From a virus (taxonomy: Duplodnaviria > Caudoviricetes): a DNA stretch of 64,000 nt. Below the pieces are notes generated by a model, which saw only the letters and a program-made list of their open reading frames with translations, made no database searches and was not told the origin of the DNA. This document shows positions 8,401 through 55,709 of this stretch, piece after piece (positions within the stretch are counted from its first letter, which is position 1; every line of letters starts with the position of its first letter). The DNA lies in IMG/VR virus record IMGVR_UViG_3300044712_000786, positions 32,001 to 96,000 of that record. One strand, given 5' to 3'. A program made the translations under genes and the position numbers.

Positions 8401-8556
8401 ATCGGAACGGGTGGATTTGGCGGGGCATTAGAAAATAACGCTGGTCTTGAGGCTGTTTTTGTTAATAATAGTAATGTTATTACCCCTCCCACAGGTTCGG
8501 GGATTGCTAGAATCACCGTTTATTCAGTTAAAAATAAAGTCGGCATAGCATACTAG
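5467..8556 (+). CDS. Tailspike / receptor-binding protein with pectin-lyase-like domain
   Basis: VVDSMAALR...VKGYYAVGDLGGGNFRWDATSTATDD particle-binding module, then NVKMWGA...TDNAPMFNRAI...FPHGAYLV beta-helix start. Confidence 0.75.
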   Translation: MTTRIPVTDISGKMVWPSAISNYQTVVDSMAALRAFDVGPVVDGQTVFVKGYYAVGDLGGGNFRWDATSTATDDSGMYIVPDSNPAAGRWIRFLNGEAFNVKMWGAKSDMVFSDPDHWVDGAGTDNAPMFNRAIQSIAGQQVFNHSRELIFPHGAYLVKDTIYLWANMKYSTDGALNSTFVWMSSGVNKDIFVSRNASGAIDRMNRPPPAASGTVPDGYYQTVGDDHALKFDGMVIAYCGFNDAQPPDAGIVSYTSQTGYSCFVWCHPGEGSELNNLYTWGGKYGIRTIGGGAPGPYVRRVSAWHPAKAGFGYEAIKNWFRVDGSWVLKKDGAGNIFSLDNPSCDYRAWNWSGGMVHIQDNAGSVYLKGPKFEGIARNGVVCVEYGPDDWTIGQIDIQGGTFNCGILGAVADYNNVWSSAVTFNKIQDTGTYGAAIYSGNYDMPTVTIDKVNMYQVKYLVEDRVNDYRWGIRSLGLDQGRCNRRFTYNGRRTLASGVAHSSYFKPFVSTEDTSVIQFRPDKTGWWRIATATNYNFGGTFEINGVYSDSTSFNVSCPTWLESGSAREVELSLNRSPNVKSKTSTYNQKHVTKARAYLAYGPKGANYESGYTCYLDVYVDKPLWTNPAWTGVNSEESFIYDFLYITSRTENRYADSRDESSFIKPIFLGTGKIDYSGFNPNDPNLYSFGQLDFENQGFVCNDGSPVGAHLKMGDEHIFVDNNGVLKRYNQGAQVIIVDNQNAQTYTDYRAFFTSGGGGVEYILRSHTGNLRDAITTPRVFVSPYETGNGIGALFSATPFYLTGITVVNAGSGYNKNPSMTDGHKILFEEDYGNEIMASRRLYANDVFYITNPSANSRIISGSGFYTSLFVGDRLVGPNNSNYLIDYVVDDKVAIISPFYPAAVTNGMFRRAGYSLVKQETGFYHAVTDVKISLLHDTPWHSGSGFTKLVVRSTNGATVAEIARTGMSGVLQPPISFYWPVIGTGGFGGALENNAGLEAVFVNNSNVITPPTGSGIARITVYSVKNKVGIAY

Positions 8557-8570
8557 TGTAATAAAAGTAT

Positions 8571-9059
8571 ATGCTAGTTGTAGACATCGCAGATTCTCTC
8601 TATGAGGACTTGGGACAACCAAGTTCGACAAGTATTGCTTCTATTGCGTTTTGGTTAAGAAACCACATAGGACACTTAAATACTTTAATTGGAACATCTT
8701 ACGTCTTAGACGAAGACCAAGAAATTATGTCGGGAGACAACGAGATTGGAACTTCTGAAGCCGACATTCTTAAACAATTGTATATGGTTTATTGGGCGAA
8801 GCTCCAAGTTAAGAATTATTTGGGCGCTTCTGGCACCGAATCCGTTCTAACTATAGAAGATGATGGGGCGAAAGTAACCAAAATAAATAAAACAACTCTA
8901 GCATCTGAATATAGGAATTTAGCGAAAGATGAGCAATTAGCCTTAGACCAAATGGTTAATTCCTATAAGAGGCATGGCTCTTTGCCAGTTCAGGTTACTG
9001 GAGACGATACAGTTGCAGCAGTTTATCAAGTAGTTGACCCAAGGACAAGATATGTCTAG
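8571..9059 (+). CDS. Putative head-tail adaptor (neck) protein
   Basis: Size, synteny before closure/terminator/tube genes, late motif upstream. Confidence 0.45.
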   Translation: MLVVDIADSLYEDLGQPSSTSIASIAFWLRNHIGHLNTLIGTSYVLDEDQEIMSGDNEIGTSEADILKQLYMVYWAKLQVKNYLGASGTESVLTIEDDGAKVTKINKTTLASEYRNLAKDEQLALDQMVNSYKRHGSLPVQVTGDDTVAAVYQVVDPRTRYV

Positions 9060-9486
9060 TTTAATAGGCGCAGCCGCTCAAGCGGAATTTACTGGTCAAT
9101 TAATAGACCATTTTGATACTTTTAAAAAGCCTCTAATAGTCTTTAAAGAGCCTATACAGACGGTCAATACGGACGCTAATGTTTACGTTGGTTATAACGA
9201 AATACAAGGAGAAACCGTTACTTATGCTCCCGTAAGCGGAGCGTTTTACGCTTTAAAAGTAGCTAATAATAAAGTAGCCGTCAACTATGTCCCCCGAACA
9301 GATAACGTTGTTTATTCAAGCATTATCAGAATTAAAGTCCTTCCCGAAACTCATAAATTTATAAGCGAGGGAAAAACTGAGTCGGTTTTATTCAACGATA
9401 TGACTTATAACGTAATTAGCTCCCCTATCCCCAAAGACATATTTGGGCTAAGGTTTTATTATTACGATTTAGCACAGTCCTTCTAA
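9052..9486 (+). CDS. Putative head-closure protein
   Basis: Synteny; ATG at 9052 overlaps the upstream gene end. Confidence 0.4.
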   Translation: MSSLIGAAAQAEFTGQLIDHFDTFKKPLIVFKEPIQTVNTDANVYVGYNEIQGETVTYAPVSGAFYALKVANNKVAVNYVPRTDNVVYSSIIRIKVLPETHKFISEGKTESVLFNDMTYNVISSPIPKDIFGLRFYYYDLAQSF

Positions 9487-10094
9487 TGAAAAACATTGTT
9501 TTAAATATTAACTCTATCAATGAAAGGGTAATTAAAAACGCCCCGAGTATGAAGGGTTTTATGAACAATGCGGCTAGAGCAAAGCTTGTATCTAGAAAAA
9601 ACGCGCTAATTAAAGCGTTTGACGCGCATTCAGTAACCCGAGAAATAGAAAAGGGACCAGATTCTACCTCTAATTCTAGTTCTACTTTAGGCGGAAAACC
9701 CAACTTATTCAGTTTTATTGGATTCGAAAGCGGGAGTAACCCCACATCGGAACTTAGGCAGTTCCTAATGAGTTATATTGATTTGTATAAAACTCCCCCT
9801 AAGATAAAGGGAAATAGTAGAGAAGTCTTCTTCGAATATCAAGTTAAAATCCCTAGCAAAGCTGAAATTGGCGCAGTTACGCCATTACCATTTAAAACAA
9901 GGTCTTCTAATAAAAGCTGGGCGCTTAGTATCGAAAGTGGCCTTTGGGGACTCTCCCATTACCTCTTTGGACTTTTTGCTTCTTCTCGTTCAGGCACGGG
10001 CTTAGAGTCTAAGTATAAAGTAAGGGATACCGAATTTGCCCCCGTTCCGTATTTGACTAAATTGTTATACGATTTTCAGGAATCATTATTTTAA
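9486..10094 (+). CDS. Putative tail-completion/neck protein
   Basis: Synteny; basic composition; WALSIESG motif. Confidence 0.4.
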   Translation: MKNIVLNINSINERVIKNAPSMKGFMNNAARAKLVSRKNALIKAFDAHSVTREIEKGPDSTSNSSSTLGGKPNLFSFIGFESGSNPTSELRQFLMSYIDLYKTPPKIKGNSREVFFEYQVKIPSKAEIGAVTPLPFKTRSSNKSWALSIESGLWGLSHYLFGLFASSRSGTGLESKYKVRDTEFAPVPYLTKLLYDFQESLF

Positions 10095-14478: not shown

Positions 14479-17400
14479 ATGAACTTAGACGGAAAATTAG
14501 TAATTGGTGCGGACGTAACCCCAGCCCTTAATGAGATAGTAAGGATGGCGGGTAAGCTGCCCCCCTTCAAAATTAGAGTAGACACCCGAAATTTCCCATT
14601 AGGCTCAATGGCGAAATCGGCTGACCAGTTTGCTCAATCCATTCAGGCCGCTAATCAACGTGTGTTAGCTTTCGGAGCTTCGGCGGGAACCATTTACGCA
14701 ATAGAAAAAGCTTTTAGATTCCTAGTATCTTCTACTATCGAAGTAGAAAAGAGACTTACTGAAATCAATGTAATTTTGGGGGCTTCTAGCTCGAACTTAA
14801 AACAATTCAGTAATGAATTATTTAACATTGCCAAAACGACTGGTCAAAGCTTTGATGAAGTATCTAAAGCAGCCCTAGAATTCAGCCGTCAAGGTTTGGG
14901 AGTAACTGAAACTTTAAAAAGAACTCGTGACGCCCTTATCCTGACCCGTCAAACTGGTATTGATGTTGGCGAGGCGGTTAGCGCCATCACCGCTACTTTA
15001 AACAGTTTTACTAAAGCTGCTTATGATTCTACTACGGTAATTAATAAGTTAGCTAAAGTTGACCAAAACTTTGCTGTTAGTGCAGGCGACTTAGTCGAAG
15101 CTATTAAGCGCGTAGGTAGCTCCGCTGAAGACGCGGGAGTTTCCTTGGATGAACTTATCGCTATGGTAACCTCTGCTCAACAGATTACCGCTCGTGGAGG
15201 TTCTGTTATTGGTAACGCCTATAAGACTATCTTTACTAGGTTACAACGTCCTGAAGTATTGAACCAGTTAGAGGAAATTGGTGTAGCCGTTAGAGATAAC
15301 AGTAACGCTATTCTTCCCGCTATTAAAATACTGGAGAACTTCTCTAAGTCCTATGATAACCTTAATCAGTCTCAGAAATCCGCCGCTACTGAATTAGTCG
15401 GTAGCGTTTATCAGATTAACGTTTTAAAAGCTGGATTGAAAGACTTGGGGAGTAGCTATTCTTTCTACGAAAGAGCTTTAAATGACTCCGCTTCCGCTAC
15501 TGATGAAGCTATCCTTCGTAACGAGAAGATGAATAAGTCTATCGCTGCAATGGTGAACTCTACTAAGGAAAGTTGGAAACAACTTTCTGCTGATATTGGC
15601 GAGCAAGCTATTGGCCCAGCTATTAAAAGGGCTTTGGGGGCTTTTGATTTTGCTGCTGGTGGATTAAGCGAACTCTTTTCCAAAAACAAGGGCTCTGGAG
15701 AACAATCAGTTAATATTGGTAAAGACATCGGTCAAGGAATTCTAAAGGGACTTTCTCAATTTATAGAAGGACCGGGATTAGCTTTGGTTGGCTTAGTAAT
15801 GTTTCGCTTCGCTAAAACATTTACTAAATTTGCGATTGATTCTGCTAAAGTAGTTGGCGAACTTAATAAAAATATAGAAAATCGGGCTATCTTGGAAAGC
15901 GAAATTGCGACTGTTTTAGCTCAACAACCTAAAATCTACGAAAGACTTCTAAGCGGAGAGATTACCCGAGAACAAGCGGAAAGGGAAGTTCTTACTATTA
16001 TTAGAAATCAAAATGCCGCCTTAGATATCCAAAAGGGTATTATTACTAGCATGGGAACTTCTATTTCTACTCGTGGAGCAGCGGCAGTTACAAGAGATAA
16101 AAAGGTTGTTGTGGCTGCTTCTAGAGGATACATCCCAAACTTCGCAAACCCCGTTCTTACTGAAAGGGCGGGGGCTTACAAAGCTGGTTACGTGCCGGGA
16201 AAAGTTAAACTTTTCGAAAATAAAGTCATTAATGATGCGGAAAGAGTTATTCCTCCTTCTAATCTAAAAAATCTGGGCTCGACAGCTAATACTTCTGCCA
16301 TCGTCCCTCCTTTAGCTAGCCCCGCTGGACAGGTTTATAAAGCTGCTTTTAAGACTATGTCGGGAGTAGATTTAGCTACTGGACAAAAGGGTTTCATGTA
16401 TGGAAGAAATTACTTTCAACGCGAATGGATTAAAAGCACGGCTAAAAATAGAAAGCTGAGCGTTAATGACCCCGATGTTATTATGACTTTGGGGAAGGAA
16501 TTCGCGAATAAATATGGAACTAAACAGGGGTTCCTTGCTGTAAATAAAGGTTTTGTACCTAATTTCGCGCAGTACCAGTATCCTACCATTGCTGCTATAA
16601 GGAAGCAGCGTCCTCAATTAGGGGATATCTTGAAAAATGCTCCTACAGTTTGGGGGCAGGCTACTGGACAGAGATTCCTTAATCATGATTTGACAGGCGA
16701 TAAAATCCCCATCAGCTATAGAGATAATATTAACTTAGGGGATATGATGAATAACATCCTAGCGAAAGGTAAATTCAGGGCTAGTGAGGGATTCGTTCCT
16801 AGTTTCGCTTCCTTTAAAGAATATAAGGGTATCGGTCTAACCGCCAGAGTCCCCGATAGCGAAATCCTTGACCCCGAAGCTGCTTCAAAATTTGCTCAAA
16901 AACTTTCCTTAGATGGAAACGTATCTACTTTGCTGAAAGTTATTCGTAAAGTTGCACCTAAAAGCCCCGCGCTCGAAGATAATTCTTTGAAATTTGAAGT
17001 AAACTCGGGACTTAGATTTGGTAACGATTTTAAAGCTAGTGGCTTATATCAGTCTGATAATGATACAATATCTATATCCTCTTCTGCTAGAAGCCAGACC
17101 CTAGCTCATGAAATGGGGCATATGGTAGATATATCTTCATTCAGTGATTTTTATAAACAGTCGGGTTTTTCAAGAAAAAAACTTATCAACGCATTAAGAA
17201 GGGACCAAATAAAGTTTAAATCTCGACCTTATTTAATGACTGGAGCTTTTGACGGAGACATGGTTAGAGACATGCTAATGATGTATAGAAGCCCAGATAA
17301 AAGAAATAAGGAAGCTATTGCTGATATTTTTGCGGATTCTGGAAGGATATTCAATCCCAAAATGGAGGATTATAGTCATAAAAAGTATCTAACTACTGGT

Positions 17401-20400
17401 GAAGCGCCGAAAATGATTCGCAAAGGGATTAAGAAAATATTAGGATTAAAATCTAGCGGATTTATTCCTAACTTTGGACCCATCAAAGACCCCTATAAGG
17501 TAAATCCTATTTATCATGTACTAGAGACGATTAGAAAATCAAGTGGCAGCGATTATCAAAATAATTGGGGTGAGCCCATAAACTACGATGAGAGACAAGA
17601 AGAGAATAAAAGACTAATAGCTTCTGTAAAATCTATCGGTTTTGCAGGCTACGGAATCAAAAGTGATAATAAAGATTACCAAATTGGTTCTATGTTTGCC
17701 CCTTATGCTATAACTACTGGATATGAAGAAAAGGAGGTGGCTAAATACATCCCCATGGATAAACTGAAGGCGGCTGGGCTATCCGAAAGACGTATTTATA
17801 AAATGCTCTTTAAAGGAGATAGACTGAGTTCTCGTTTCCAGCAGTATAACGACCCCTTTTCTATCGAATCCTCTCAGGCAAAAATACGCAGAGCCAAAGA
17901 GGGTATCGCCGTTAAAAAAGCCTCTGGAAATACTATAAACCTAAATGCTGCAACATATCTAGCTAGCCGAATGAAGGAAAATAGTCAAGATAAGTGGGCT
18001 CAGCAAAACGCTATTAGCGAAGCTCTTAACACTATAGTTCCTTATCCAGAGCTACAATCTGAGAAACAGGAAGGAAAGGTAGTTAAACAATATCTTAGTT
18101 CAGGCGACAATAAATATAAGCGCGGTTCCCTTAAGGAAACCAAAGAAAAGCTTATGCAATATTTTGGAATCAAAGTAAACAAAACAGACGCCGCAGGAAT
18201 GTTATCTGAGAAACGTCTACTAAGAAGTTTAGGTTTGGCTTCTCGTGGAAGCCCAACTTTAGCAGAGGACAGGGGGCTAGAGCTTAATGACTATAAAAAT
18301 AATCAACAAAGACGTATAACGGTCTCTTCTAAAATAGGTCAATATAGAAAAGAGTTAGAAATAGCTTCTTTAGTTGATAATCCTATATCTCCCGCGATGT
18401 CTTTAGATGACTATAGGCGTTATATTTTAACGCACGGCGCTACTCCAACTACCCCATTTTCGAGGGTAATTACTCAGTTACAAAGGGCGTCTGCTAAGGA
18501 GGACAAGGGGGATAGAAAAACTAATCTAGAATATGCATTACGAAGTATAGCGGGGGGAAGTGTATCATCCACTGCCACAATTAGAAATTTGCCGCGCCTA
18601 AATAAAATATTTCCAGAATTGAAATTGACAAATAAAGAAATTATTAGAGCTTTCAAAAATTCCACTTATGGAAAAATATTCCGACCCGCAGAACAAAAAC
18701 CGTCTATTTTAGGTCAAACGATGGAGTCCCTTAAGGCATTTAAAGGCTTTAGGTCAACTCAAGCAAAGGCTAGATTAGGTAGAGGGGAAGTAAAAGGCGT
18801 TACTCAAGATATGTTCAATTCGGATATAACCCCTTATGCATCATTCTCTATTATTCAAAGGGAAACCCCTAAAAATATACAAGATATCTTATTTAATCTA
18901 GAAAAATCATTTGCCGACAGAGTCAGTCAATCCAAGCTGCTATTTAGAGGCTCTAGTATAATTGAGCCAATGCTAGTTAATCTATTAGGTTCATTTACTT
19001 CTCTAGGAGGTAGGACAGACGAAAAAAGAATAAGGTCTTATCTTACTTCTTCTATTGTAAAATCCGCTAGTTACGGACTTAGCTCTCCGATAGGGGATAA
19101 AAAAGGCGTAGTAAGCATTTATTCTCGACCAATATTGGAAAATTTAGGACTGCTTCAATCTGGTTTAGTTCCTAGTAATGAACAAGCTAATTCTGTTGTT
19201 GCAGAAAGGCTACATAGAAAAGCTTTAATGGGGGTATTAAATCTAGAGAATGGCAGACTGCTTAAGCCAAAAGACTTCATGTCTTCAGTAAGAGATATAG
19301 AAATACCAGAAGAACTGATTCAATTTAATAGGGGACTAAACGAGTTAGCTTCTGGCTCTATTATAAATCGAGCAAGTCCTAAAATAACCTCCACTCCGAT
19401 GGGCGGGGTTATGAACCTATATCGAAAAGTAGAAACAAGTGGAATGACGCCAAGACAAAAAGATTTTAGAGGGCCTAAAACACCGCTGCCTTTCGAAGAT
19501 ATAAAGGGCTGGGATAGCGAGCGAATGGTTAAATACCTACGAAGTTCTCTAGGTGATACTGAAAGGGGAGTAGCTCCATTTGGTTCAGAACATTCTTCTT
19601 ATTTCGATTTAAGATACATGTCTTTTACTGATAGGAAGATGAGAAAAGATATTGCAGAAGGTAGAGTTAGTCTTCAAGATTACTCTTCTATTATTTTCCA
19701 AAGAAAAGTTCCCGTTCAGGAACTTGTAACCCCAGAAAACTTGGGCGATATAATGACTTCTGGGGAAGCTACTAAAAAGAAAATATTTGATAGGGGCGTG
19801 TTTTTTGACCTTCCTCGGTTTAGAGATAAGTTCGGAATTAGTGAACATACTTCAGAACGCGAATATCCATTTTTAACAACTGCTCCCGCTGGAAAAGTAT
19901 CTAACTTCGGTAAAATTTTCGGGCTTTCGAGAAGTAAGGGATATGTTCCTAATTTTGCCTATATTCCCGGCATAAGTCAATTAGCTGGAAGACTACTTAC
20001 TAATATAACTCATACCGAAAGCTATGGGTTAAAAGAAAGAATGGATTCCATCAAACAATTAAAACTTAAAGACTATATTGGGGCTCTGGTAAAAGATATA
20101 CCTACCCCCGCTGCATCCCCTAAAGGAGAGGTATGGAATACTTACGATAGGGATATCCTATTCCGTTCGGTCTTTAAATTGCCACATAGAGTTCTAATGC
20201 CCGAAAATCAAGACTTTCTTAAGTCTAGAAAATTAGTTAAAACTTCTGATAGTACATATAGGTTGACTAACAAAGGACGCATACTAAGTAATGCTTTACA
20301 AAGTCTATCTCAAGGCAAGTATGCTCCACAACCTAATAACCCCAACGAGCTTTATATTCTAGGCCAAAATAAAACTATGGGGGGTTTTGACTTTACGATT

Positions 20401-23400
20401 AACAAAGACCAAAATAAGGTCGGCTATCATGACCTTTGGGATTTCGCCAAAAACCCTTGGGAAAAATTCGATTTCAAAGGCGCGCTAAGTTTTGCTGGCC
20501 AATATGCTAAAAGCGTAGTTAAGAATCGTTCTTTTGGAATGACTGACGAATTAAGGTCTCACCCCTTTGTAGCGGAAGATAACTCGATGTATCGCCAAAG
20601 CCCAGCTTCTATGTTGGCTAGAATGGCAATTAGTCCGTTTGCTAGACCTGTTCGAGTTCAAGACTCTTTCTCCCCTCTAAGTAAAGAGAAAGTAGAAAGA
20701 CTGCAAAAACTCAAGTCCTCTTCTTCATATGGAAGCAAGAGACATAAAGTTTATAATCAAGCTCTAACAGATGATAGCCTAGTAAAGCAACTGCTAGAAC
20801 TAGCAAAAAATCCCCCTCCTTCTGTAGGCATAATGAATAAAGGCTTTGTTCCTAATTTCGTTCTACCCAACAAGGGTTTCTTGGGCTCTCCATTCCCGTT
20901 TGAAGACTTCAGAAAGCTTAAAACGCTTGAAGAGCAATATAAGTTCATTAAAAGCGAGTTTCCTAAAGTGGGGCTAGCTAACCATCCTATTGGCGAGGGC
21001 TCTTCTCGCGCCGTTTATGGTATCGGCGGTAATATGGTATTAAAAATGGTTAAAGATACCAAGCATATTATCGATGGATATAAAAGCCACCCTCTAAACG
21101 AAGCTATTAGACAGAAAGTTTTACTAAAAGGATTTGCTCAAAATCAAACAGAGGGAAGTCAAATGTTTGCTGGCTTCCGAGACATTGTTCCTTATAACTA
21201 TGAAGTAGACGATAGATTCAAATACATCATAGCCGAAAGAGCAGCGGCAATGACCCAAGCAAATGCGGTTAAATTCGGTTATCCATCTGTTTCCGATGCT
21301 CTATATGAGCCCCGCTTCCGTAGGAGACTTACTTCTCTTTATAAAACGGGAGTAATTCCAGATGAAGGTTCTAAAAACTTTGGATTTATAAGGAGAGGGG
21401 GAGAAAATAGACCCGCGTTAATCGACTATGGATTAGACACTCAAACAGCTAAAAATCTATATGGTTTTACTGGGCAGGATTTTATTTCTAAGGGTTTAAT
21501 CCCGAATTTTGCTATAGAGTTTAAGGATAGAAAGCGCATCTATAAGACAGGCTTTGGTGGAGATACAGAGTTTCTAGAAAAGGTTCTATCTAAAATTAGC
21601 CCCGATACATCCTTACTGCAAGCTACTATTCATGGTAGTAGAGACGAATTATTGCAGCGAGTTACCCCAGCGGAATTAGAAGAAATTCTCGCGCTTAAGA
21701 ATATACCTATTAATAAAGACACTATTGCTCATATTAATATAGTAAAAACCCGTTTCGGTAATCTTCCTCATACCTTTGGTATTCAGCAGAAACTTTCTGG
21801 AAGCACGGCCCCCCTTGTGGTTGTTCCTTCGTTCCCAGACCCAGTAATTAACGCTGAAACTGGATTAGGCACTAAAGAAGGTAGGGGAACACTTATTAAT
21901 ACTATCCTAACGAGAAATCCTCGCGGAGAAGGAATAGTTCGCCCATCAGTAGATAGATTTGGACAGATAATGAAGATTCTCCAAGATAAATGGGGTAATA
22001 CTACAGAAGTTATTGGACTAGAAAGAGCTAGGCAGATGTTCGGCCTAAACGCAAAAAGGAAGGCTAGTGGATTCATTCCTAACTTTGCTGACCCGCTTAA
22101 ACTTGCTATAGCTCGCGAAATAGCCGCTGGTGTTCCAGCTAGCTTAATTAAAGTAGAAAATCACGCAAGTCTTAAGAGCGCAAATAATCCATTGGGATTA
22201 GCGGTTACCAATAAAAGAGACGAGCCCAACGGAGTATCCCAAGGTATTTCCCGCGCTATACGCGAGGGAGCTAACCCTAAAACTTATGGTAGCGGTAGGG
22301 TTCCCAACTTTGCTGACCAACCCCGAATTCTAACTGGCTTAAAGGGAATTTTACAGTCTAATCCCGCAACCGATGCTAACTTCAATCAGGGAGTTAGAGA
22401 CGAAATACTAGAAAAAGCTAAGACCCTAGTATTAAAAATGAAAGATAGTCAGGTTCCTATTGGGGAACTCGGGGTTCAAGCAGATAAGGCAGTTAAACAG
22501 TTTACCAAAATGGTAGCTGGTTTGACTAAGTCTCAGGAAATGATTGACTCATTTTCTAAGTCAATTAGTTATTGGAAGAGAGAAAATCAGAAGAACCGCC
22601 CTTCTACTCCGCTGAAGAATCAAGCGGATATTGGGGCTGGATTAGCTGCCCAAAATGCTTTAGAAGCCGAACTTCAAGCAAAAAGACAAGCTCAAGAAGA
22701 AAGAACTCAAAAGAGAAGATTAGATGCTCAAAGTTTCAAAGAAAAGACAATTACATCTACAGTAGGGCGCATTAATCAAGGCGAATTTATTCCTAATATA
22801 AGAAAGCCTATTTTGGCAGATGAAAGAGTAAGCGGAGCCCTGAAAAATCAAGCGATTTCCGTTGTCTCTGATGGAGGATTTGTATTAAGTGGGGATAGGA
22901 AGAAATACTATGACTGGTTAGCGAAGAACGATAAACAAGCCTTCAGGGGCGCTAAACAAATGAGAAACGCTAATCTCCAAAACAGAGCCTTTGGAGTAAG
23001 TTTCGGGGCTTCTATGGTTGGTGGACTAGCTAGCCAATTTATTGGTGACGCTACTCAAGAAAGAAGAGGATATAGTAAAGCTGTCGAAGGTGGGGCTAAC
23101 ACTCTAGCTATGGGAGCATTAGGCTTTCAGGTAGCTGGGCCAGCAGGAGCATTAGCTTTGGGTGCTGTATCGGGATGGGGTGCTGTTACGGATACTATTA
23201 AAGCCTTTAATGACACTCTTCCTGATTTACAAAAGAATCTGGAAGCTGTAACCGAAAGGTCTACAAGGACTTCAGACGCATTTAGTAAGTTCATACAGAC
23301 TAGCGAACAAATCAATAGTATTTTACTAAGTCCTAAACCGGGAGCAGCTAGAGAGTTACAACGCTTACGCACTCAACAATCTTCGGCGCTCGCAGATATT

Positions 23401-26400
23401 CCAGATAGAGACTCATTTGGTAAGTCTGCACGACAAGACCTATTAGACGCATTTAAAACTGGCGACGTAAACAAACAAATCGAAATCTCCGAAAGAGTAG
23501 CTAAGAGAATAGGAACAGAGAAAACCGCTGCCGAATTAGAAACTGGCTTTGCCGAATATCTTGACAAAAATAAGAAGATAAACAGCGAGGGATTTAGCCG
23601 AATTGACAGCTTTGAAAGGACTCTAAGGAGTTCTGTTAATAAGCAGGGATTAACCTTTGACCAATTCTTAGCTACTAATCCCGGCTCCTTAGACTATATT
23701 AAAAGCTCTGGAAGCGCCGAACAAATGGATTCTCGCCTAAGGGAATTAATTAATAAATTCGACCCTAGCTTTAATACTTCGTTTTCTGGAGCATTAAATA
23801 AACTATTTACAGAAGAAGGACCGCTTAAGCAGAACGCATATAAGAGAGTATTTAGCGGAGCTACTAACGAACAATTGGATAGCGAGCGAAAAGCCCTTGA
23901 ATTAATGAATAGAAATCAAGTAGAAAGCGCTAAATATATCGAATCCTTCGGTAATCAAGTTTTCTTAACTAAGGAAAAATTCCGCTCATTTACTGATGAT
24001 ATCGTCGCCTCGATGGAGAGGTTTAATGCTAATCTGCAAGCCGCAAATGAAAGAATAGATATATTCGGTAAGGGTCTAATTGATTTAAATGAACCTTCCT
24101 TGCGCCCCGAGGGACAACTAAATATTAGTCAGGGATTTAGAGATATACAGACAAAAGCGCAAGCCCAATCTCAATTTTCTCTAATTCAGAAACAGTTTGA
24201 ATCTGCTATGAGCGCTGCCCTAACTAAGGCGGAAACCCAAAGGTTCGACGCATTTGAAAAGTTAATGGGCGAAAAAGCTGGTGTTCTAAGTGGCGCTCAA
24301 CAAGTATCTAACGCCGCTTATACCAACGTTCTTTCTGGCGGTGACTTACTACAAAAACTAAACAATATTAATAATAGGACCGAAGTAACGGGTGGATTAT
24401 CTGAGATTAACAAAATTAATCAAGAATCTATCAGAAACACTTTAGAGGAATTTAACAAGATTGCCCGAGAAAAAGATAGCTCTATTACTGCTTTAATAGA
24501 TACTACCGCTAATAAGTTAGCCGCTCTTGATTTAACCAAGACTTTGGAAACTAGCCGCCTTAACTTGAATCAAAAGTTGAATTACGGGGGCGGGTTATCC
24601 GAAATACTAAATGGTAATATCAAAGCCCAGATGGTTCAGCTAGGAACCTCCGCTAATGTAGCTAATACTCTTAGAAACAGCACTGCTCCCGGTGAAGTAG
24701 CTTATCAAAGGGCTGAAATTCTTAAGAAATTCAACGTAGAAGTTCCCGAAAGCCTTAGGAAAGAACTATTTACAGAAAGTAAAAAGAATTTAACTCAAGC
24801 TGGTTTTTCGATTCCCGATGAGGTAATTCAAAAACAAATAGATTCTACATTCCCTAAATCTGACCCAGAGCGAGAAGCTAAAATAATTAAAGCTATGGAG
24901 GAAATGGCTAAACTAAGCCTCGCTGCTGTAAATGAAGAGTCATTAATCAAGCAAACCGAGCTAAGTATTGCTACTCAAACCCAGATTAACACTAAGAATA
25001 TATCTGATGGAATAGCACAAATATTAAAAGATGGATTGAAGGTAAGCGAATCTAAGAACACTAAAGATAGTCCCGCTCCTAGCTCATTTGAAATGCCAAT
25101 GTCTTGGGACATGCCTGCTAATCCGATGCTAAAGTATGATATTGGCTCAGTTTCTAAATCTATTAAATCTAAGGAAGAAGAATTTAAGAAAATAGAAGAT
25201 AATCCTGTAATGACTGTAATGCAGCGCGAAGGATGGTCTCCGTTTGCCGAAGCTAAACCTAAAAAACTTTATACTTTTTCTGATTTAAGGGAGATGGAAA
25301 GACTACAGGGAGAAATTGATAAAGATAAAACGACTCTTGCTAAAATCAAATTAGACGCCGCCAGAAATCAAATCTCTATTCCGTTTGGAATGTCACAAGA
25401 CTGGGAAGATAGCAAACCTAGCAAAATTACCCCTAATATAGGAACAACGAAAGCTAACTTAGGTTATTACGGAGGGATGGCTTATGATTTACCGATGCCG
25501 ATGACCCCTTCTCTGCCAGTCTATAATAACAAGAATATTATTACTCTAGCGGAAATTAAAGCTAAACAAATTAACGCAGCTAACGAAAAGAACTTCGGGG
25601 ATGTTATAAGGGAAGGACCGTTGCCTATTTCAACTACGGACCCAACTGCTCGACCACAAGCTAAAAATACTAGATACGCGGCAGAATTAAGACAGAGAAT
25701 AGAATTAGACGCCGCTACTAAAGATTATATAGCTAGCACGAAAGAATTAACAGAAGCTATGTATGGTGCCGTTGGAGGTTTTACTACCTTTAATGATACC
25801 ATTATCTCTACTCAAAAAACTCTAATTGACTTTGCGGGGTCAGTAAAAGAAGGTTTCCATGACTTAATTGGCTTAGCTATAAGAGGAACGGGCGATATTG
25901 AGGAAAGATTCCGCGAAATGTTCGAGGAAATACTTAATAAAGCCGCAACAAATATGGCTTCTAGCGGACTTGACTTTGTATTTAGCCAAGTTACTAAGGG
26001 TATTGGAGTTGAAAGCCTATTCAAGAATAAGGGCGGTTATATTCCTCGATTCTCTGAGGGTGGAGTAGTAAGAGGGGGTTCGGGAACTAAAGACGATGTT
26101 CTAGCTCAGCTTAGCGGCGGCGAATACGTTATCAATAGGTCCGCTGCTGAAAAAATTGGTTATAAAAACCTAGAAGCAATTAATAAAGGAGGTTCTTCGG
26201 GCGGTCCTTCTAACTGGGACGCTTTTGGGGCTGCTGGTGGAGCCGATTCATTTATTAATCAGCGCTCTAGCGGGATTACCGCTCATTTACAGAATGCTTA
26301 TCGATATAATGACCCTCGTCAGCCAACTGCTGGAGAGGTTGTAGTTGACCCTAGGTTGTCTATCCAAGCTCTAACTGACATGGATAATCCTCAAAGCAGG

Positions 26401-27213
26401 ATTAGAATGGAAAGGGAAGAGAATCTATTAAACTACATAACAGATAAACAAGATTTTCAAAAAGCCCAAGACAAGGCTCAGAAACAGTATAAGGAAGGTC
26501 TATGGTGGAGCTTTGGAACATCTTTAGCTGGCGCTGCTGGCAATACTTGGGCAGCGGGAGCTAAACCTAATACTTTAGGTGGCAAAGACTTTAAGGGAGC
26601 TTATGATACCTCTACTTCGGCTGAAGGCGCTGATTGGTCTAATCCCGGCTTTGAATACGAAAGATTCCAGTGGGATAGTAGTGTATCTCGCAGACCCCTA
26701 ACCCGTAATTCGGGAGGTTCTATCAATTCTAAGACAGCTTTATTAACTGGGGGCGAATATGTTATGTCGCCTGCTACTGTAAGCCGCCTAGGGGTGTCTA
26801 GAATGAATACCTTGAACGCTGGACACGTTCCCACTTTCGCTCTAGGAGGGCTTATGGGCTCTTCTAACGCTGGAAGCTCTCCAGACTCACTTAAGGAGTC
26901 TATAGACAAGCTAGTAGCCGTTTCCCAAGAGATACGGGGCACCCTAGAGGGTAAGGATACTAAAACGGGTAATAAAGATTCGGCACCCGCTATATCCAAT
27001 AACGTTAATATAACTATTTCTGTTACTCAGACTGGAAAAGTCAACTCAGACACTCAAGTTTCGTCTGGTGCAGGGGCTTCCGAGAAGGAAGACAAGAATA
27101 AGAAGCAGGACGAATACAAGAAACTTGGTATGATGATTGAAAACAAGGTCTTGGAAGTTATTGTTCAGGAGCAGAGACCGGGGGGTCTGCTTTATGATTC
27201 CGAATCTCGTTAA
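14479..27213 (+). CDS. Giant tape measure protein (4244 aa) with internal enzyme-like cassettes
   Basis: N-terminal TMP core (LKQFSNELFNIAKTTGQSFDEV...NKLAKVDQNFAVSAGDL...GNAYKTIFTRL); helical distal region; C-terminal GGYIPRFSEGG...LSGGEYVIN module present twice; position after chaperones. Confidence 0.9.
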   Translation: MNLDGKLVIGADVTPALNEIVRMAGKLPPFKIRVDTRNFPLGSMAKSADQFAQSIQAANQRVLAFGASAGTIYAIEKAFRFLVSSTIEVEKRLTEINVILGASSSNLKQFSNELFNIAKTTGQSFDEVSKAALEFSRQGLGVTETLKRTRDALILTRQTGIDVGEAVSAITATLNSFTKAAYDSTTVINKLAKVDQNFAVSAGDLVEAIKRVGSSAEDAGVSLDELIAMVTSAQQITARGGSVIGNAYKTIFTRLQRPEVLNQLEEIGVAVRDNSNAILPAIKILENFSKSYDNLNQSQKSAATELVGSVYQINVLKAGLKDLGSSYSFYERALNDSASATDEAILRNEKMNKSIAAMVNSTKESWKQLSADIGEQAIGPAIKRALGAFDFAAGGLSELFSKNKGSGEQSVNIGKDIGQGILKGLSQFIEGPGLALVGLVMFRFAKTFTKFAIDSAKVVGELNKNIENRAILESEIATVLAQQPKIYERLLSGEITREQAEREVLTIIRNQNAALDIQKGIITSMGTSISTRGAAAVTRDKKVVVAASRGYIPNFANPVLTERAGAYKAGYVPGKVKLFENKVINDAERVIPPSNLKNLGSTANTSAIVPPLASPAGQVYKAAFKTMSGVDLATGQKGFMYGRNYFQREWIKSTAKNRKLSVNDPDVIMTLGKEFANKYGTKQGFLAVNKGFVPNFAQYQYPTIAAIRKQRPQLGDILKNAPTVWGQATGQRFLNHDLTGDKIPISYRDNINLGDMMNNILAKGKFRASEGFVPSFASFKEYKGIGLTARVPDSEILDPEAASKFAQKLSLDGNVSTLLKVIRKVAPKSPALEDNSLKFEVNSGLRFGNDFKASGLYQSDNDTISISSSARSQTLAHEMGHMVDISSFSDFYKQSGFSRKKLINALRRDQIKFKSRPYLMTGAFDGDMVRDMLMMYRSPDKRNKEAIADIFADSGRIFNPKMEDYSHKKYLTTGEAPKMIRKGIKKILGLKSSGFIPNFGPIKDPYKVNPIYHVLETIRKSSGSDYQNNWGEPINYDERQEENKRLIASVKSIGFAGYGIKSDNKDYQIGSMFAPYAITTGYEEKEVAKYIPMDKLKAAGLSERRIYKMLFKGDRLSSRFQQYNDPFSIESSQAKIRRAKEGIAVKKASGNTINLNAATYLASRMKENSQDKWAQQNAISEALNTIVPYPELQSEKQEGKVVKQYLSSGDNKYKRGSLKETKEKLMQYFGIKVNKTDAAGMLSEKRLLRSLGLASRGSPTLAEDRGLELNDYKNNQQRRITVSSKIGQYRKELEIASLVDNPISPAMSLDDYRRYILTHGATPTTPFSRVITQLQRASAKEDKGDRKTNLEYALRSIAGGSVSSTATIRNLPRLNKIFPELKLTNKEIIRAFKNSTYGKIFRPAEQKPSILGQTMESLKAFKGFRSTQAKARLGRGEVKGVTQDMFNSDITPYASFSIIQRETPKNIQDILFNLEKSFADRVSQSKLLFRGSSIIEPMLVNLLGSFTSLGGRTDEKRIRSYLTSSIVKSASYGLSSPIGDKKGVVSIYSRPILENLGLLQSGLVPSNEQANSVVAERLHRKALMGVLNLENGRLLKPKDFMSSVRDIEIPEELIQFNRGLNELASGSIINRASPKITSTPMGGVMNLYRKVETSGMTPRQKDFRGPKTPLPFEDIKGWDSERMVKYLRSSLGDTERGVAPFGSEHSSYFDLRYMSFTDRKMRKDIAEGRVSLQDYSSIIFQRKVPVQELVTPENLGDIMTSGEATKKKIFDRGVFFDLPRFRDKFGISEHTSEREYPFLTTAPAGKVSNFGKIFGLSRSKGYVPNFAYIPGISQLAGRLLTNITHTESYGLKERMDSIKQLKLKDYIGALVKDIPTPAASPKGEVWNTYDRDILFRSVFKLPHRVLMPENQDFLKSRKLVKTSDSTYRLTNKGRILSNALQSLSQGKYAPQPNNPNELYILGQNKTMGGFDFTINKDQNKVGYHDLWDFAKNPWEKFDFKGALSFAGQYAKSVVKNRSFGMTDELRSHPFVAEDNSMYRQSPASMLARMAISPFARPVRVQDSFSPLSKEKVERLQKLKSSSSYGSKRHKVYNQALTDDSLVKQLLELAKNPPPSVGIMNKGFVPNFVLPNKGFLGSPFPFEDFRKLKTLEEQYKFIKSEFPKVGLANHPIGEGSSRAVYGIGGNMVLKMVKDTKHIIDGYKSHPLNEAIRQKVLLKGFAQNQTEGSQMFAGFRDIVPYNYEVDDRFKYIIAERAAAMTQANAVKFGYPSVSDALYEPRFRRRLTSLYKTGVIPDEGSKNFGFIRRGGENRPALIDYGLDTQTAKNLYGFTGQDFISKGLIPNFAIEFKDRKRIYKTGFGGDTEFLEKVLSKISPDTSLLQATIHGSRDELLQRVTPAELEEILALKNIPINKDTIAHINIVKTRFGNLPHTFGIQQKLSGSTAPLVVVPSFPDPVINAETGLGTKEGRGTLINTILTRNPRGEGIVRPSVDRFGQIMKILQDKWGNTTEVIGLERARQMFGLNAKRKASGFIPNFADPLKLAIAREIAAGVPASLIKVENHASLKSANNPLGLAVTNKRDEPNGVSQGISRAIREGANPKTYGSGRVPNFADQPRILTGLKGILQSNPATDANFNQGVRDEILEKAKTLVLKMKDSQVPIGELGVQADKAVKQFTKMVAGLTKSQEMIDSFSKSISYWKRENQKNRPSTPLKNQADIGAGLAAQNALEAELQAKRQAQEERTQKRRLDAQSFKEKTITSTVGRINQGEFIPNIRKPILADERVSGALKNQAISVVSDGGFVLSGDRKKYYDWLAKNDKQAFRGAKQMRNANLQNRAFGVSFGASMVGGLASQFIGDATQERRGYSKAVEGGANTLAMGALGFQVAGPAGALALGAVSGWGAVTDTIKAFNDTLPDLQKNLEAVTERSTRTSDAFSKFIQTSEQINSILLSPKPGAARELQRLRTQQSSALADIPDRDSFGKSARQDLLDAFKTGDVNKQIEISERVAKRIGTEKTAAELETGFAEYLDKNKKINSEGFSRIDSFERTLRSSVNKQGLTFDQFLATNPGSLDYIKSSGSAEQMDSRLRELINKFDPSFNTSFSGALNKLFTEEGPLKQNAYKRVFSGATNEQLDSERKALELMNRNQVESAKYIESFGNQVFLTKEKFRSFTDDIVASMERFNANLQAANERIDIFGKGLIDLNEPSLRPEGQLNISQGFRDIQTKAQAQSQFSLIQKQFESAMSAALTKAETQRFDAFEKLMGEKAGVLSGAQQVSNAAYTNVLSGGDLLQKLNNINNRTEVTGGLSEINKINQESIRNTLEEFNKIAREKDSSITALIDTTANKLAALDLTKTLETSRLNLNQKLNYGGGLSEILNGNIKAQMVQLGTSANVANTLRNSTAPGEVAYQRAEILKKFNVEVPESLRKELFTESKKNLTQAGFSIPDEVIQKQIDSTFPKSDPEREAKIIKAMEEMAKLSLAAVNEESLIKQTELSIATQTQINTKNISDGIAQILKDGLKVSESKNTKDSPAPSSFEMPMSWDMPANPMLKYDIGSVSKSIKSKEEEFKKIEDNPVMTVMQREGWSPFAEAKPKKLYTFSDLREMERLQGEIDKDKTTLAKIKLDAARNQISIPFGMSQDWEDSKPSKITPNIGTTKANLGYYGGMAYDLPMPMTPSLPVYNNKNIITLAEIKAKQINAANEKNFGDVIREGPLPISTTDPTARPQAKNTRYAAELRQRIELDAATKDYIASTKELTEAMYGAVGGFTTFNDTIISTQKTLIDFAGSVKEGFHDLIGLAIRGTGDIEERFREMFEEILNKAATNMASSGLDFVFSQVTKGIGVESLFKNKGGYIPRFSEGGVVRGGSGTKDDVLAQLSGGEYVINRSAAEKIGYKNLEAINKGGSSGGPSNWDAFGAAGGADSFINQRSSGITAHLQNAYRYNDPRQPTAGEVVVDPRLSIQALTDMDNPQSRIRMEREENLLNYITDKQDFQKAQDKAQKQYKEGLWWSFGTSLAGAAGNTWAAGAKPNTLGGKDFKGAYDTSTSAEGADWSNPGFEYERFQWDSSVSRRPLTRNSGGSINSKTALLTGGEYVMSPATVSRLGVSRMNTLNAGHVPTFALGGLMGSSNAGSSPDSLKESIDKLVAVSQEIRGTLEGKDTKTGNKDSAPAISNNVNITISVTQTGKVNSDTQVSSGAGASEKEDKNKKQDEYKKLGMMIENKVLEVIVQEQRPGGLLYDSESR
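16126..22314 (+). repeat. Nine copies of peptide motif G[FYLR][IV]P[NS]F[AGV] inside the TMP
   Basis: Motif starts at nt 16126, 16549, 16789, 17458, 19939, 20842, 21493, 22069, 22294; looser copies near 22783, 26035 and 26821. Confidence 0.9.
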
Positions 27214-52884: not shown

Positions 52885-53090
52885 ATCTTATCAATAAAGT
52901 ATTCTGCTACGGAAAACGCTACACAATCATCCCCCCCATAAATGGGGACGGGAAAACGTGCATAAGTTAATTGAATTACGTATGAATTAAGATTCTTATC
53001 GCGAGGCGGATGAAAACGCGCTATAACTCTTCCTTCAAATCCAGTTATTGTCTTAACTACATCGCCGATTTTGAATTTATATGTTCTCAT
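52881..53090 (-). CDS. SH3/KOW-like small protein
   Basis: YKFKIGDVVKTITGFEGRVIA; own promoter. Confidence 0.65.
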   Translation of the reverse strand: MRTYKFKIGDVVKTITGFEGRVIARFHPPRDKNLNSYVIQLTYARFPVPIYGGDDCVAFSVAEYFIDKI

Positions 53091-53126
53091 GCCTTGATAC
53101 TATCAGGTCTTTTTGAATTGTCAAGA

Positions 53127-53215
53127 TGGTACCAACGACTGGATTCGAACCAGCAAGGCTTTTAATGGCCGAGGGATTTTAAGTCCCTTGTGTAAACCAA
53201 TTCCACCACGTTGGC
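53127..53215 (-). tRNA. trnL: tRNA-Leu (anticodon UAA), CCA encoded
   Basis: GCCAACG/CGTTGGT acceptor, AGGGA-CTTAAAA-TCCCT anticodon arm, long variable arm, GTTCGAATC T-loop, ACCA end. Confidence 0.93.
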
Positions 53216-53221
53216 AAAGAC

Positions 53222-53409
53222 AGCGCGATGGCGGATTCGAACCACCGACCTATGAAGCTTCTGGCCTCATTGCTCTGGGATTTAGGCAAGTTGTTAACGA
53301 CCCACCATTTACCCCATCCCCACTAGTATACAGCGCACGCAAGCCTTATTCTAGAATTATCTCTATTGCACGCCTTAAACCGTCGAATGAACCGCTGAGC
53401 TAATCGCGC
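53222..53409 (-). ncRNA. tRNA-shaped gene with 114-nt D-loop insertion and enlarged anticodon loop
   Basis: GCGCGAT/ATCGCGC acceptor; GCTCAGCGGT[53390..53277]AGAGC D-arm; ATGAG-GCCAGAAGC-TTCAT arm; AGGTC variable region; GGTGG-TTCGAAT-CCGCC T-arm. Confidence 0.75.
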
Positions 53410-53410
53410 A

Positions 53411-53678
53411 TAAATTCTAGGCTATTAGACTTGCTCCGCTTAGTTATGTATTCCTAAGCATTCTAGCTTCGGGAATTACCCGTCATTATCTAATTCTTTC
53501 CCGCCGAAGGAACAGACAGCATTAACGTAGCTGCCTACACGTTCGAAATTCTGATTGACTTGCGGGGGGTTAAACATAAGCAAGGTAGCTACTCCTCACT
53601 CATGCCGCTTATAGTCGGGATTCCTCCCAATGGGTCTACCCGATTCGCCAGCCGCCAATCAAAGCTGACTTGCTAGCT
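53411..53678 (-). ncRNA. Candidate structured RNA B, 5' of the tRNA cluster
   Basis: Promoter (-35 53707-53712, -10 53685-53690) with no ATG at +1; multiple hairpins with GNRA/UUCG loops. Confidence 0.5.
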
Positions 53679-53715
53679 AAATTGAATCTACCAAACTTTT
53701 TTCAGAAGTCAAGCT

Positions 53716-53856
53716 TTAGACTTCGGTATAAGCTACGGTAATATCTACAACCCCATTGCCATACTTCTTCTTAGCTTTCTTTTCAGCTGCATTGTGGGAG
53801 CCAGCTTTAATCAAAGCTATCTCAATTCCATTACAATAAACAATATAGGTCTTCAT
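53716..53856 (-). CDS. 46-aa hypothetical protein (not in ORF track)
   Basis: TAATG coupling; MKTYIVYCNG... Confidence 0.55.
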   Translation of the reverse strand: MKTYIVYCNGIEIALIKAGSHNAAEKKAKKKYGNGVVDITVAYTEV

Positions 53857-54014
53857 TAATTTCCTCTCACGTAAGCTTTTTCTTCTGTCTTGCACTTAGG
53901 GCATTCAAAAGTCATAACGTCATAGCCCTGAAAATCTTCCTCTATGTTGAGGAACTTAACCTTAGCGGCATCGAACCGCTCTTTACATTTGGGACAGGTA
54001 ACGAAGTGTCTCAT
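53856..54014 (-). CDS. 52-aa zinc-ribbon protein (not in ORF track)
   Basis: CPKC...CPKC; own promoter. Confidence 0.7.
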   Translation of the reverse strand: MRHFVTCPKCKERFDAAKVKFLNIEEDFQGYDVMTFECPKCKTEEKAYVRGN

Positions 54015-54734: not shown

Positions 54735-55709
54735 TTACGCCACAAGCAAGTCAATCGCTTGCTGTTTGAGCCTTGCCCCACTCCCCAAGAGGATAGAATC
54801 AAAGCGGCTTTCGCCCTTTTCCTTATCGCCCGTCACGCGAATCGAACGGGAGAAATCGGTGAATTCAGTAATCGCGTTCAAGTAATCATAGCGGCTCTCG
54901 CCTACGTTACCCGTTCCCCGCTGAAACAGAGAGATAACTTCCTCCCGCACGTTTTCAGTTCGAGTAGAAACTTCCACTTCCCCAGTTTCCTCGTTAACAG
55001 AAGCGGGAAACAGGACTTCGTTGAACTTGACCGCGTCATCCACGGTCATTTTCTTGGTTTTAAGCATGTTCATCACTTCACCGAGCTTAGTGAAGTAAGC
55101 TTCAGCAATACCAAGCACGCGCTGAGCCTCTTCTTTCTTGCTCTTGTAGTTCTTGGTATGGCGAATCTTAATCTGATTAGTTGCCCCGTCAAGAGCAGCA
55201 GTCAGAGTATTCTGACAAACTACGCGCACCGCAACATGTTGCATCCAAACACCATGGGAACCATCATGGGCGGTGACCAAAAGCACCCACTGTTCATGCT
55301 TGTCAGTCGAGTCAACATAGACCGTATTAGGCAGCTTTGCCATAATCCAAATCTTGCGCCCGTCATGCAAGGCACCCGCAGTCTCATAGATTGCCTGCCC
55401 CGCACCAACAACTTCGTCAAAGAACCCGAAGGCATCCGCGTTCTGAATGACAGTGTAGCGATTCTTCACCACACCAAGGGGGAAATTGTTGTCGCAACGA
55501 ACGACAGCTTTATAATCCCTCAACTCGATGTCCTGCCCCTTGACAGTGAGGGGACGCTTCTCAACTTGCCAATCCAAATGTGCATGTTGAATTGCTTCGG
55601 CAGCAGTGGCAAGCCCTTCGATGACTTGTCCCTGCCCGTGCCAAGGCACTTGGCGATTACCACTGAACATTTCCGTTACTCCGTTTACGACTGATAGATT
55701 TGCGCTCAT
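54735..55709 (-). CDS. DUF932-family phage/plasmid protein
   Basis: PWHGQG...AIQHAHLDWQVEKRP...VVRCDNNFPLGVV...YTVIQNADAF...ETAGALHDGRKIW...AHDGS...VRVVCQNTL...RHT; terminator at 54705-54728. Confidence 0.85.
   Translation of the reverse strand: MSANLSVVNGVTEMFSGNRQVPWHGQGQVIEGLATAAEAIQHAHLDWQVEKRPLTVKGQDIELRDYKAVVRCDNNFPLGVVKNRYTVIQNADAFGFFDEVVGAGQAIYETAGALHDGRKIWIMAKLPNTVYVDSTDKHEQWVLLVTAHDGSHGVWMQHVAVRVVCQNTLTAALDGATNQIKIRHTKNYKSKKEEAQRVLGIAEAYFTKLGEVMNMLKTKKMTVDDAVKFNEVLFPASVNEETGEVEVSTRTENVREEVISLFQRGTGNVGESRYDYLNAITEFTDFSRSIRVTGDKEKGESRFDSILLGSGARLKQQAIDLLVA

Follow-up and report, generated by a model that had tools for sequence, protein, structure and literature searches.

The window analysed here, a 64,000-nt stretch of viral DNA, belongs to the complete genome of a soil phage (202,704 bp, with terminal repeats) whose DNA is present in rhizosphere metagenomes. 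The window also encodes terminase, portal-like and tail-fibre genes and, judged by sequence, its virion genes and promoters are those of a bacterial virus. A single 4244-aa ORF (14479-27213, plus strand) is probably the tape measure protein, and the minus strand carries genes for a 130-aa destabilase-type protein (i-type lysozyme, PF05497; 52492-52884) and a 324-aa DUF932 protein (phrog_1221; 54735-55709).

The gene under study, hereafter the D-insert gene, occupies positions 53409-53222 of the minus strand (188 nt; genome positions 85222-85409) and is single-copy in the complete 202,704-bp genome. An ORF-free leader runs directly into its 5' end, and a tRNA-Leu(UAA) gene starts 6 nt downstream of it (Table 1). 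The leader has no Rfam match at E<10 and occurs once in the phage genome. Since a promoter-like site lies upstream of the leader, it is plausible from the sequence that leader, D-insert gene and tRNA-Leu are carried in one transcript. AGATAAT was also considered and dropped: each strand has 41-43 copies of it, and a 13-mer in common with the leader falls within a coding region.

Table 1. Coordinates of the features at the D-insert locus, in window positions
Feature	Position	Strand	Basis or remark
Promoter-like site of sigma-70 type, TTGACT-16-TAGATT, second hexamer preceded by TG	53685..53712	-	consensus match only
ORF-free leader, ~270 nt, running into the 5' end of the D-insert gene	53410..53678	-	fold z = -1.83
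5' exon-like part: acceptor 5' strand, U8 A9, GCTC, AGCGGT with G18 G19	53391..53409	-	sequence, ARAGORN
Insert, 114 nt, between D-loop positions 20 and 21	53277..53390	-	sequence, ARAGORN
ATTCGACGG, 5' end of the insert, directly before GGTTTAAGG	53380..53388	-	9-mer identical to E. coli tmRNA junction
AGATAATT, first motif common to both inserts	53355..53362	-	insert alignment
TACTAGT, second common motif, 3' of a small hairpin	53322..53328	-	insert alignment
GTAAATGGTGGGTCGTTA, third common block	53295..53312	-	14/18 positions match partner insert
A21, D stem 3' strand GAGC, A26, anticodon arm ATGAG-GCCAGAAGC-TTCAT	53252..53276	-	loop without U
AGGTC, T arm with canonical TTCGAAT loop, acceptor 3' strand, discriminator T, no CCA	53222..53251	-	
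tRNA-Leu(UAA), 89 nt, canonical elbow, encoded CCA	53127..53215	-	ARAGORN; Rfam 56.1 bits

Cloverleaf and decoding capacity of the D-insert gene

A first-pass annotation, made from the letters alone, had described a tRNA-shaped gene with a 114-nt insertion in its D-loop. We confirm this description: a perfect cloverleaf with all 21 stem pairs can be drawn on the minus strand, with the insert between positions 20 and 21. At fixed tRNA geometry, the chance of 21/21 pairing is approximately (6/16)^21, or ~1e-9 per placement. The acceptor stem GCGCGAT/ATCGCGC is paired throughout (7/7) and is followed by a discriminator T, and U8 and A9 are present ahead of a D stem, GCTC/GAGC, with 4/4 pairs. Removal of 53390-53277 leaves a D-loop that reads AGCGGT plus A, so that a textbook D arm is restored as had been claimed, and ARAGORN calls a 74-nt tRNA once the insert is excised in silico. 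Tertiary positions U8, A14, G18, G19, A21 and T54-T55-C56 are all intact. A26 leads into the anticodon stem ATGAG/TTCAT (5/5 pairs, extendable to 7), which is followed by AGGTC as the variable region and by the T arm GGTGG-TTCGAAT-CCGCC (5/5 pairs); the acceptor stem, variable region and T arm are as intact as first reported. With its insert in place, the gene draws no call from ARAGORN at default settings and no RF00005 match at E<10 in Rfam, and the fold of the whole gene has z = -0.95 relative to shuffles.

The anticodon arm can be read as a 5-bp stem with a 9-nt loop or as a 7-bp stem with a 5-nt loop. The 9-nt loop, GCCAGAAGC, contains no U, so that neither a U33 turn nor a normal anticodon turn is possible, whether or not the insert is removed; the other 7-nt reading of the loop, CCAGAAG, puts C at position 33. 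At its 3' end the gene reads ...ATCGCGC-T-GTC, with the discriminator T followed by GTCTTT and then by tRNA-Leu(UAA). The odd anticodon arm, the missing U33 and the lack of an encoded CCA had been pointed out at first pass, and the sequence bears out all three.

CCA is encoded by 17/17 of the tRNAs called by ARAGORN in this phage and by 0/2 of the insert-bearing genes, the second of which is described below (Fisher ~0.006 for this contrast). Sixteen of the phage's tRNAs form an array at genome positions 132-151 kb; these have TGC in the T-loop, with G55 instead of U55, and lack the D-loop GG, and all of them encode CCA. The canonical elbow is retained by the D-insert gene, its partner gene and tRNA-Leu(UAA). 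Because its loop has no U and no CCA is encoded, unlike in all 17 tRNAs of the phage, the D-insert gene most likely gives rise to a non-decoding tRNA-derived RNA, as far as can be predicted from the sequence.

Three other odd tRNA-like elements lie elsewhere in the phage genome, all on the minus strand (142578-142731, ~144.9 kb and ~130.2 kb). One, of 152 nt, has G3:U70 and A73, and its anticodon and variable region are replaced by ~80 nt. A second is permuted, its T arm and 3' acceptor strand preceding the 5' acceptor strand and the D arm, and a third combines the acceptor GCAAACG/CGTTTGC plus GCCA with a weak match to the tmRNA T arm.

The insert, its homologue and other split tRNA genes

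The first-pass annotation had regarded the insert as self-contained and able to close on itself, which our folding analyses do not support. Taken alone, the 114-nt insert folds no better than shuffled sequences (z = +0.18). The proposed closing helix, GGTTTAAGGCG/TGCCTAAATCC, is drawable as 9 pairs with two bulges, with pair probabilities of ~0; when this helix and the cloverleaf are both imposed, the energy is -48.6 kcal/mol compared to -59.7 kcal/mol for the free fold, a cost of 11 kcal/mol. In the thermodynamic ensemble of the insert-containing gene, the probability of formation is 82-100% for the acceptor stem and ~13% for the D stem. Given this low value for the D stem, the insert may, in the model, disturb the tRNA fold rather than decorate the tRNA. 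Inspection of the insert for an internal promoter gave no good -35 element, and neither Rfam nor ARAGORN gave a signal for a tRNA nested within it.

A whole-genome ARAGORN run with introns allowed located a second tRNA-shaped gene of the same phage, which lies outside the window (genome 120893-121078, minus strand) and is referred to here as the partner gene. Its insert of 111 nt (genome 120925-121035) is placed between anticodon-stem positions 42 and 43, and on its removal the anticodon stem CAGGG/CCCTG pairs perfectly and encloses a normal CTAGTAA loop with an AGT (A34) anticodon. The partner gene has a canonical elbow and a promoter-like site of its own, TTGAAA-17-TAGAAT.

The two inserts align over nearly their full length at ~55-60% identity, that is, ~40-45% of aligned positions differ. 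The local alignment score is 36, compared to 19.9 +/- 3.5 for shuffled sequences, and was reached by 1/2000 shuffles. Common to both are AGATAATT, a TTGC hairpin loop, TACTAGT and a GTAAAT...GG.TC.TTA block; in the D-loop insert, the hairpin 5' of TACTAGT carries the TTGC within its loop at 53339-53342 (minus strand). Inspection of the alignment revealed no reading frame common to the two inserts. From these sequence data, the D-loop insert is homologous to the partner insert, and the two form a two-member family. A profile built from the pair found no copies in the phage genome beyond these two, and a three-motif insert pattern gave 24 matches in IMG/VR viral contigs, all of them coding, and no further copy. 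When the 3' exon of the partner gene was used as a query, it retrieved only an unrelated tRNA-Pro. A mobile element resembling a MITE was considered for the inserts and rejected, given only two copies, unrelated insert ends and no flanking duplication.

The partner insert is well structured (z = -3.8), with a long rod and a GTTCAT/ATGAAC hairpin. Unaided, the partner gene folds into a cloverleaf plus long rod plus hairpin, as would be expected of an arm that is retained. Only 15/33 pairs of the partner rod are kept in the D-loop insert.

A pattern scan of viral contigs for D arms split by 95-125 nt, filtered for 7-bp acceptor closure, yielded four more single tRNA genes with D-loop inserts of 90-120 nt (L088, L100, L101 and L143), two of which (L088 and L100) derive from phage genomes >350 kb. 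Two of the four have normal anticodon loops (CAT and GAT), and two have TATTTAA. The D-loop site 3' of G18G19 is a solvent-exposed variable pocket, and the insert lies 3' of G18G19 in all five D-loop-split genes. The inserts of the four contigs are not alignable with the 114-nt insert. GGTTCA occurs in 3/4 of them (L088, L101 and L143), a count equalled by 2/20,000 shuffles; the same hexamer spans the 5' junction of the D-insert gene (window 53388-53393) and is present in the partner insert. In three cases the hexamer makes up the 5' side of a hairpin that (C/A)TGAA closes. Rfam searches of the four loci gave tRNAs and weak YrlA-like signals only, with no intron or ribozyme and no RF00028 match, and the 3' exon of the L088 gene retrieved only L088 itself.

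The two TATTTAA loops belong to L100 and L101, both on the minus strand, and give A33 and a UUU-type anticodon. The acceptor, anticodon and T stems of these two genes are wholly different yet fully paired, as would be expected for a selected RNA. The same two contigs contain tRNA genes with inserts of 40-55 nt; the gene loci are 9495-9620, 9679-9805 and 949-1073 in L100, and 11715-11827 in L101. Two of the four 40-55-nt inserts interrupt the 5' strand of the anticodon stem, with end sequences in common, and two tRNA-Leu-like genes have, within the anticodon loop, an insert that the two contigs share.

The literature gave us no account of an insert in the D-loop of a bacterial or phage tRNA gene. 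The D-insert gene is most likely a non-decoding tRNA look-alike that bears an extra RNA module, a type of design that is rare in large phages and has hardly been described.

Removal, decay or retention of the insert

Interruptions of bacterial and phage tRNA genes are not known outside the anticodon loop, nor by anything other than self-splicing introns. Where a group I intron splits a tRNA gene, it sits in the anticodon loop, is ~200 nt or longer, and has a conserved core and a terminal G. Searching window positions 52900-53900 against Rfam at E<10 returned no group I or group II intron, self-cleaving ribozyme, YrlA or Y RNA. The insert was rejected as a group I intron on account of its length of 114 nt, its D-loop position, its CCC end in place of G and the absence of an RF00028 match at E<10, and as a group II intron since it starts with TCATT rather than GUGYG, does not end in AY and has no RF00029 match. 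The first-pass annotation was right to exclude both classes. A BHB intron was also rejected; by inspection, no bulge-helix-bulge pairing can be drawn at either junction, and the intron 4-mers TCAT, CATT, ATTC and TTCG, which come just after the 5' junction, pair with none of the exon sequences AGAG, GAGC and AGCA just beyond the 3' junction. The complete phage genome encodes no splicing endonuclease (PF01974) and no RtcB (PF01139), and searches of it for Rnl2-type and Rnl1-type ligases found neither, with the Rnl1 control search also empty.

It nevertheless has to be considered that the insert is an intervening sequence removed after transcription. It might belong to a new family of ORF-less, non-ribozyme introns at non-anticodon positions of phage tRNA genes, or it might be cut out without religation, leaving a two-piece tRNA-like RNA held together by its acceptor and D stems. 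One insert family at two positions in two tRNA bodies is what mobile introns produce, and excision restores both the textbook D arm and the perfect anticodon stem of the partner. The exons look selected and the D-loop insert looks unstructured; other viral contigs have D-loop-split tRNA genes whose CAT and GAT anticodon loops are normal; and 'enigmatic' unclassified tRNA introns have been reported in Lak megaphages (PMC6784885). Against removal stand the lack of group I, group II, ribozyme or BHB features, a phage genome without endonuclease or RNA ligase, and a spliced product that would still have neither a usable anticodon loop nor an encoded CCA. On balance we consider removal unlikely. 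Taking the idea further, both ~112-nt inserts might represent a new class of ORF-less, non-ribozyme intervening sequence removed by an undescribed bacterial or phage pathway, having invaded the exposed non-anticodon sites at D-loop 20/21 and anticodon stem 42/43, and the D-loop-split tRNA genes of other large phages might use the same route. We regard this proposal as somewhat more doubtful than removal as such.

Retention of the insert is favoured because nothing able to remove it was found in the phage genome or in the Rfam scan. Among the three roles first offered for the gene, a spliced decoding tRNA is unlikely, as the anticodon loop would remain undecodable after splicing, and a decoy for anticodon nucleases is unlikely, as the loop resembles no normal anticodon loop; a chimeric non-coding RNA fits best, with no splicing apparatus or ribozyme signal found.

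The distribution of the locus bears on whether the gene is alive. Contigs from four related runs, with cover of the locus restricted to positions outside 53232-53359, showed no joined form and no allele without the insert. Among them, a contig of run X5 matches 125 nt of the leader (53418-53542) identically and then continues with a different, tRNA-like sequence. Since an identical leader stretch precedes another tRNA-like sequence there, the leader seems to form a module of its own, whichever sequence lies downstream. A relative in run X6 is identical over 33 nt of the gene (53377-53409) while differing in the leader by ~6%, a contrast that is weak (P ~0.1). The leader/tRNA cassette is absent at the matching place in relatives at 56-61% protein identity, and both insert-bearing cassettes are missing from relatives at 56-65% protein identity. 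Being absent from protein-level relatives and replaced after the leader in the X5 relative, the cassette is, on the sequences compared, accessory and dispensable.

More distant searches returned little. Terminase relatives at ~55% identity have few tRNAs and no match to the D-insert gene; GenBank phages matched the tRNA-Leu only; and exact look-ups and 90% clusters of the neighbouring proteins gave only identical copies of the same phage. A junction 18-mer matched only coding sequences in viral contigs, a leader 20-mer matched one bacterial gene only in metagenome contigs, and a 3' exon 24-mer of the D-insert gene had no match in species genomes. A 209-kb relative (L225), whose DUF932 protein is 60% identical, carries an Rnl2-type RNA ligase (8298-9293) ~1.3 kb downstream of its DUF932 gene, approximately where the D-insert phage has the leader/tRNA cassette and no such ligase.

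An insert and an odd loop are two lesions in one gene, and these also fit decay. The D-insert gene could be recently dead, a canonical tRNA gene that was gained in one step with its tRNA-Leu neighbour, was then disrupted by a small mobile or recombined element, also lost its anticodon loop, and persists only because its stems have had too little time to decay. Two disabling lesions and no CCA are consistent with this, as are an insert that folds no better than random and keeps under half of the partner's pairs, and a dispensable cassette that is missing in relatives at 56-61% protein identity and replaced in run X5. In conflict with a recent death, all 21 pairs and the tertiary positions are intact despite ~40-45% insert divergence, and neither the phage genome nor IMG/VR yielded a donor copy; the first 33 nt, unchanged in the X6 relative with its 6% leader divergence, point the same way, if weakly (P ~0.1). 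Flawless tRNA bodies in the face of ~40-45% divergence between the inserts suggest that the bodies have been under selection since old insertions. The inserts could instead have diverged before entry, however, and the selection argument is not conclusive. We judge it improbable that the gene is dead.

Our tentative preference is for a live gene whose product is a non-decoding tRNA-derived RNA that keeps its insert. A host-type promoter would drive a single transcript of leader, D-insert gene and tRNA-Leu. RNase P would then cut at both tRNA 5' ends, followed by 3' trimming, as the intact acceptor, T arm and elbow lead us to expect. The predicted product is an RNA of ~188 nt whose acceptor stem, T arm and G18G19/TTC elbow are canonical and whose anticodon loop is undecodable; the 114-nt module, placed between positions 20 and 21, would project from the elbow at its outer corner. 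The tRNA body may act as a handle for processing, stability and recognition, and the module, a member of the two-member family whose relative sits elsewhere in a second tRNA-shaped gene, would be the working part through its conserved motifs, most likely as a protein-binding platform. A Ro60-like DUF2828 protein of the phage is a weak candidate for its partner. The combination of a retained insert and a non-decoding role fits with engineered large tRNA-aptamer fusions, which usually lose their translational (decoding) activity (PMC7590224).

A more specific proposal is that the RNA is a Y-RNA-like partner of the Ro60-like protein, in which case its tRNA-like body with a protein-binding stem would resemble bacterial YrlA in an altered topology. 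Among the phage's proteins is a DUF2828 + vWA-like one for which TROVE + vWA_Ro60 are the nearest named Atlas clusters, YrlA combines a tRNA-like module with a Ro60-binding stem and is found in phages (PMC4201824), and the start of the insert, TTCGACGG, loosely recalls and partially matches the YrlA motif GNCGAA(N)G. There is no match to RF02553 or RF00019 at E<10, however, and the DUF2828 gene (genome 153877-155352) is 69 kb away, whereas YrlA genes adjoin rsr. Ro60-like genes occur in 3/3 complete phages with D-loop inserts but also in 8/17 control contigs, which gives no discrimination. We think such a partnership very unlikely. TROVE or DUF2828 genes are common in large tRNA-rich phage contigs, being present in eight of the 17 that served as controls.

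Alternatively, the RNA might bind SmpB or enter stalled ribosomes as a mimic of the tRNA-like part of tmRNA. The arrangement GG-(TTC)-ATTCGAC-GG followed by the start of a helix is as at the D-loop/P2a junction of E. coli tmRNA and agrees with the tmRNA signature of D-loop GG, then (A/U)UUCGAC, then helix P2a, ATTCGACGG is identical over 9 bases to E. coli ssrA positions 15-23, and the GG-(TTC)-ATTCGAC-GG pattern is expected 0.01 times in that 701-nt locus. Mimicry is contradicted by the lack of a match to the RF00023 covariance model or in the ARAGORN tmRNA search, by a third acceptor pair of G3-C70 rather than G3:U70, and by the presence of a full D stem and anticodon arm. Furthermore, no reading frame (tag) is conserved between the two inserts, the phage genome is without SmpB, and the helix after the motif is energetically disfavoured. 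This makes a tmRNA mimic extremely improbable.

Relation to known systems

The closest literature, going by the sequences described, is that on the 'enigmatic' tRNA introns of Lak megaphages, whose tRNA genes have inserts of no known intron class or mechanism (Devoto et al. 2019, PMC6784885). The resemblance lies in an insert within a tRNA gene of a large phage with many tRNAs and without an Rfam intron class. The Lak inserts were found with tRNAscan eukaryote settings, and one of them is tRNA-shaped; our 114-nt insert, in contrast, lies in a D-loop and is not tRNA-shaped, and the D-insert gene has no usable anticodon loop.

Non-canonical archaeal BHB introns (Aeropyrum pernix, PMC3241643) likewise occupy non-anticodon positions, the D-arm included, but the D-insert gene differs in having no BHB pairing, no endonuclease or RtcB, and bacterial-virus promoters and virion genes. 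Group I tRNA introns share with it the interruption of a bacterial-type tRNA gene and a 5' exon that ends in U, which holds for both insert-bearing genes, and they differ from an insert of 114 nt in the D-loop with a terminal C and no RF00028 match at E<10.

YrlA (RF02553; Chen et al. 2014, PMC4201824) is similar in being non-decoding, in having a tRNA-like elbow with an extra stem, and in its occurrence in Ro60-encoding phages. YrlA is circularly permuted and lies beside rsr, however, whereas the D-insert gene has normal tRNA topology, a closed anticodon arm and a distant Ro60-like gene. The tRNA-like domain of tmRNA has an acceptor stem, a T arm, a GG D-loop, ATTCGAC and a large inserted domain in common with the gene, which for its part has no alanine identity pair, tag frame or model match and keeps its D stem and anticodon arm. 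An otherwise normal tRNA body with an extra arm is also found in class II tRNAs and in engineered tRNA scaffolds or aptamer-tagged tRNAs (PMC7590224); their extra arms are short and in the variable region, while that of the D-insert gene is 114 nt long and in the D-loop.

If the insert is retained, phages would be using the tRNA body as a natural scaffold on which to carry additional RNA modules; its removal would instead imply an undescribed route of tRNA processing in bacteria or their viruses. Because standard tRNA finders and Rfam miss such genes, the tRNA-like repertoires of phages are under-counted. Relative to the known systems, what is new here is the D-loop split of a tRNA-shaped gene, a homologous insert placed elsewhere in a second gene of the same phage, and the use of the same D-loop site in four other viral contigs, two of which are phage genomes >350 kb.
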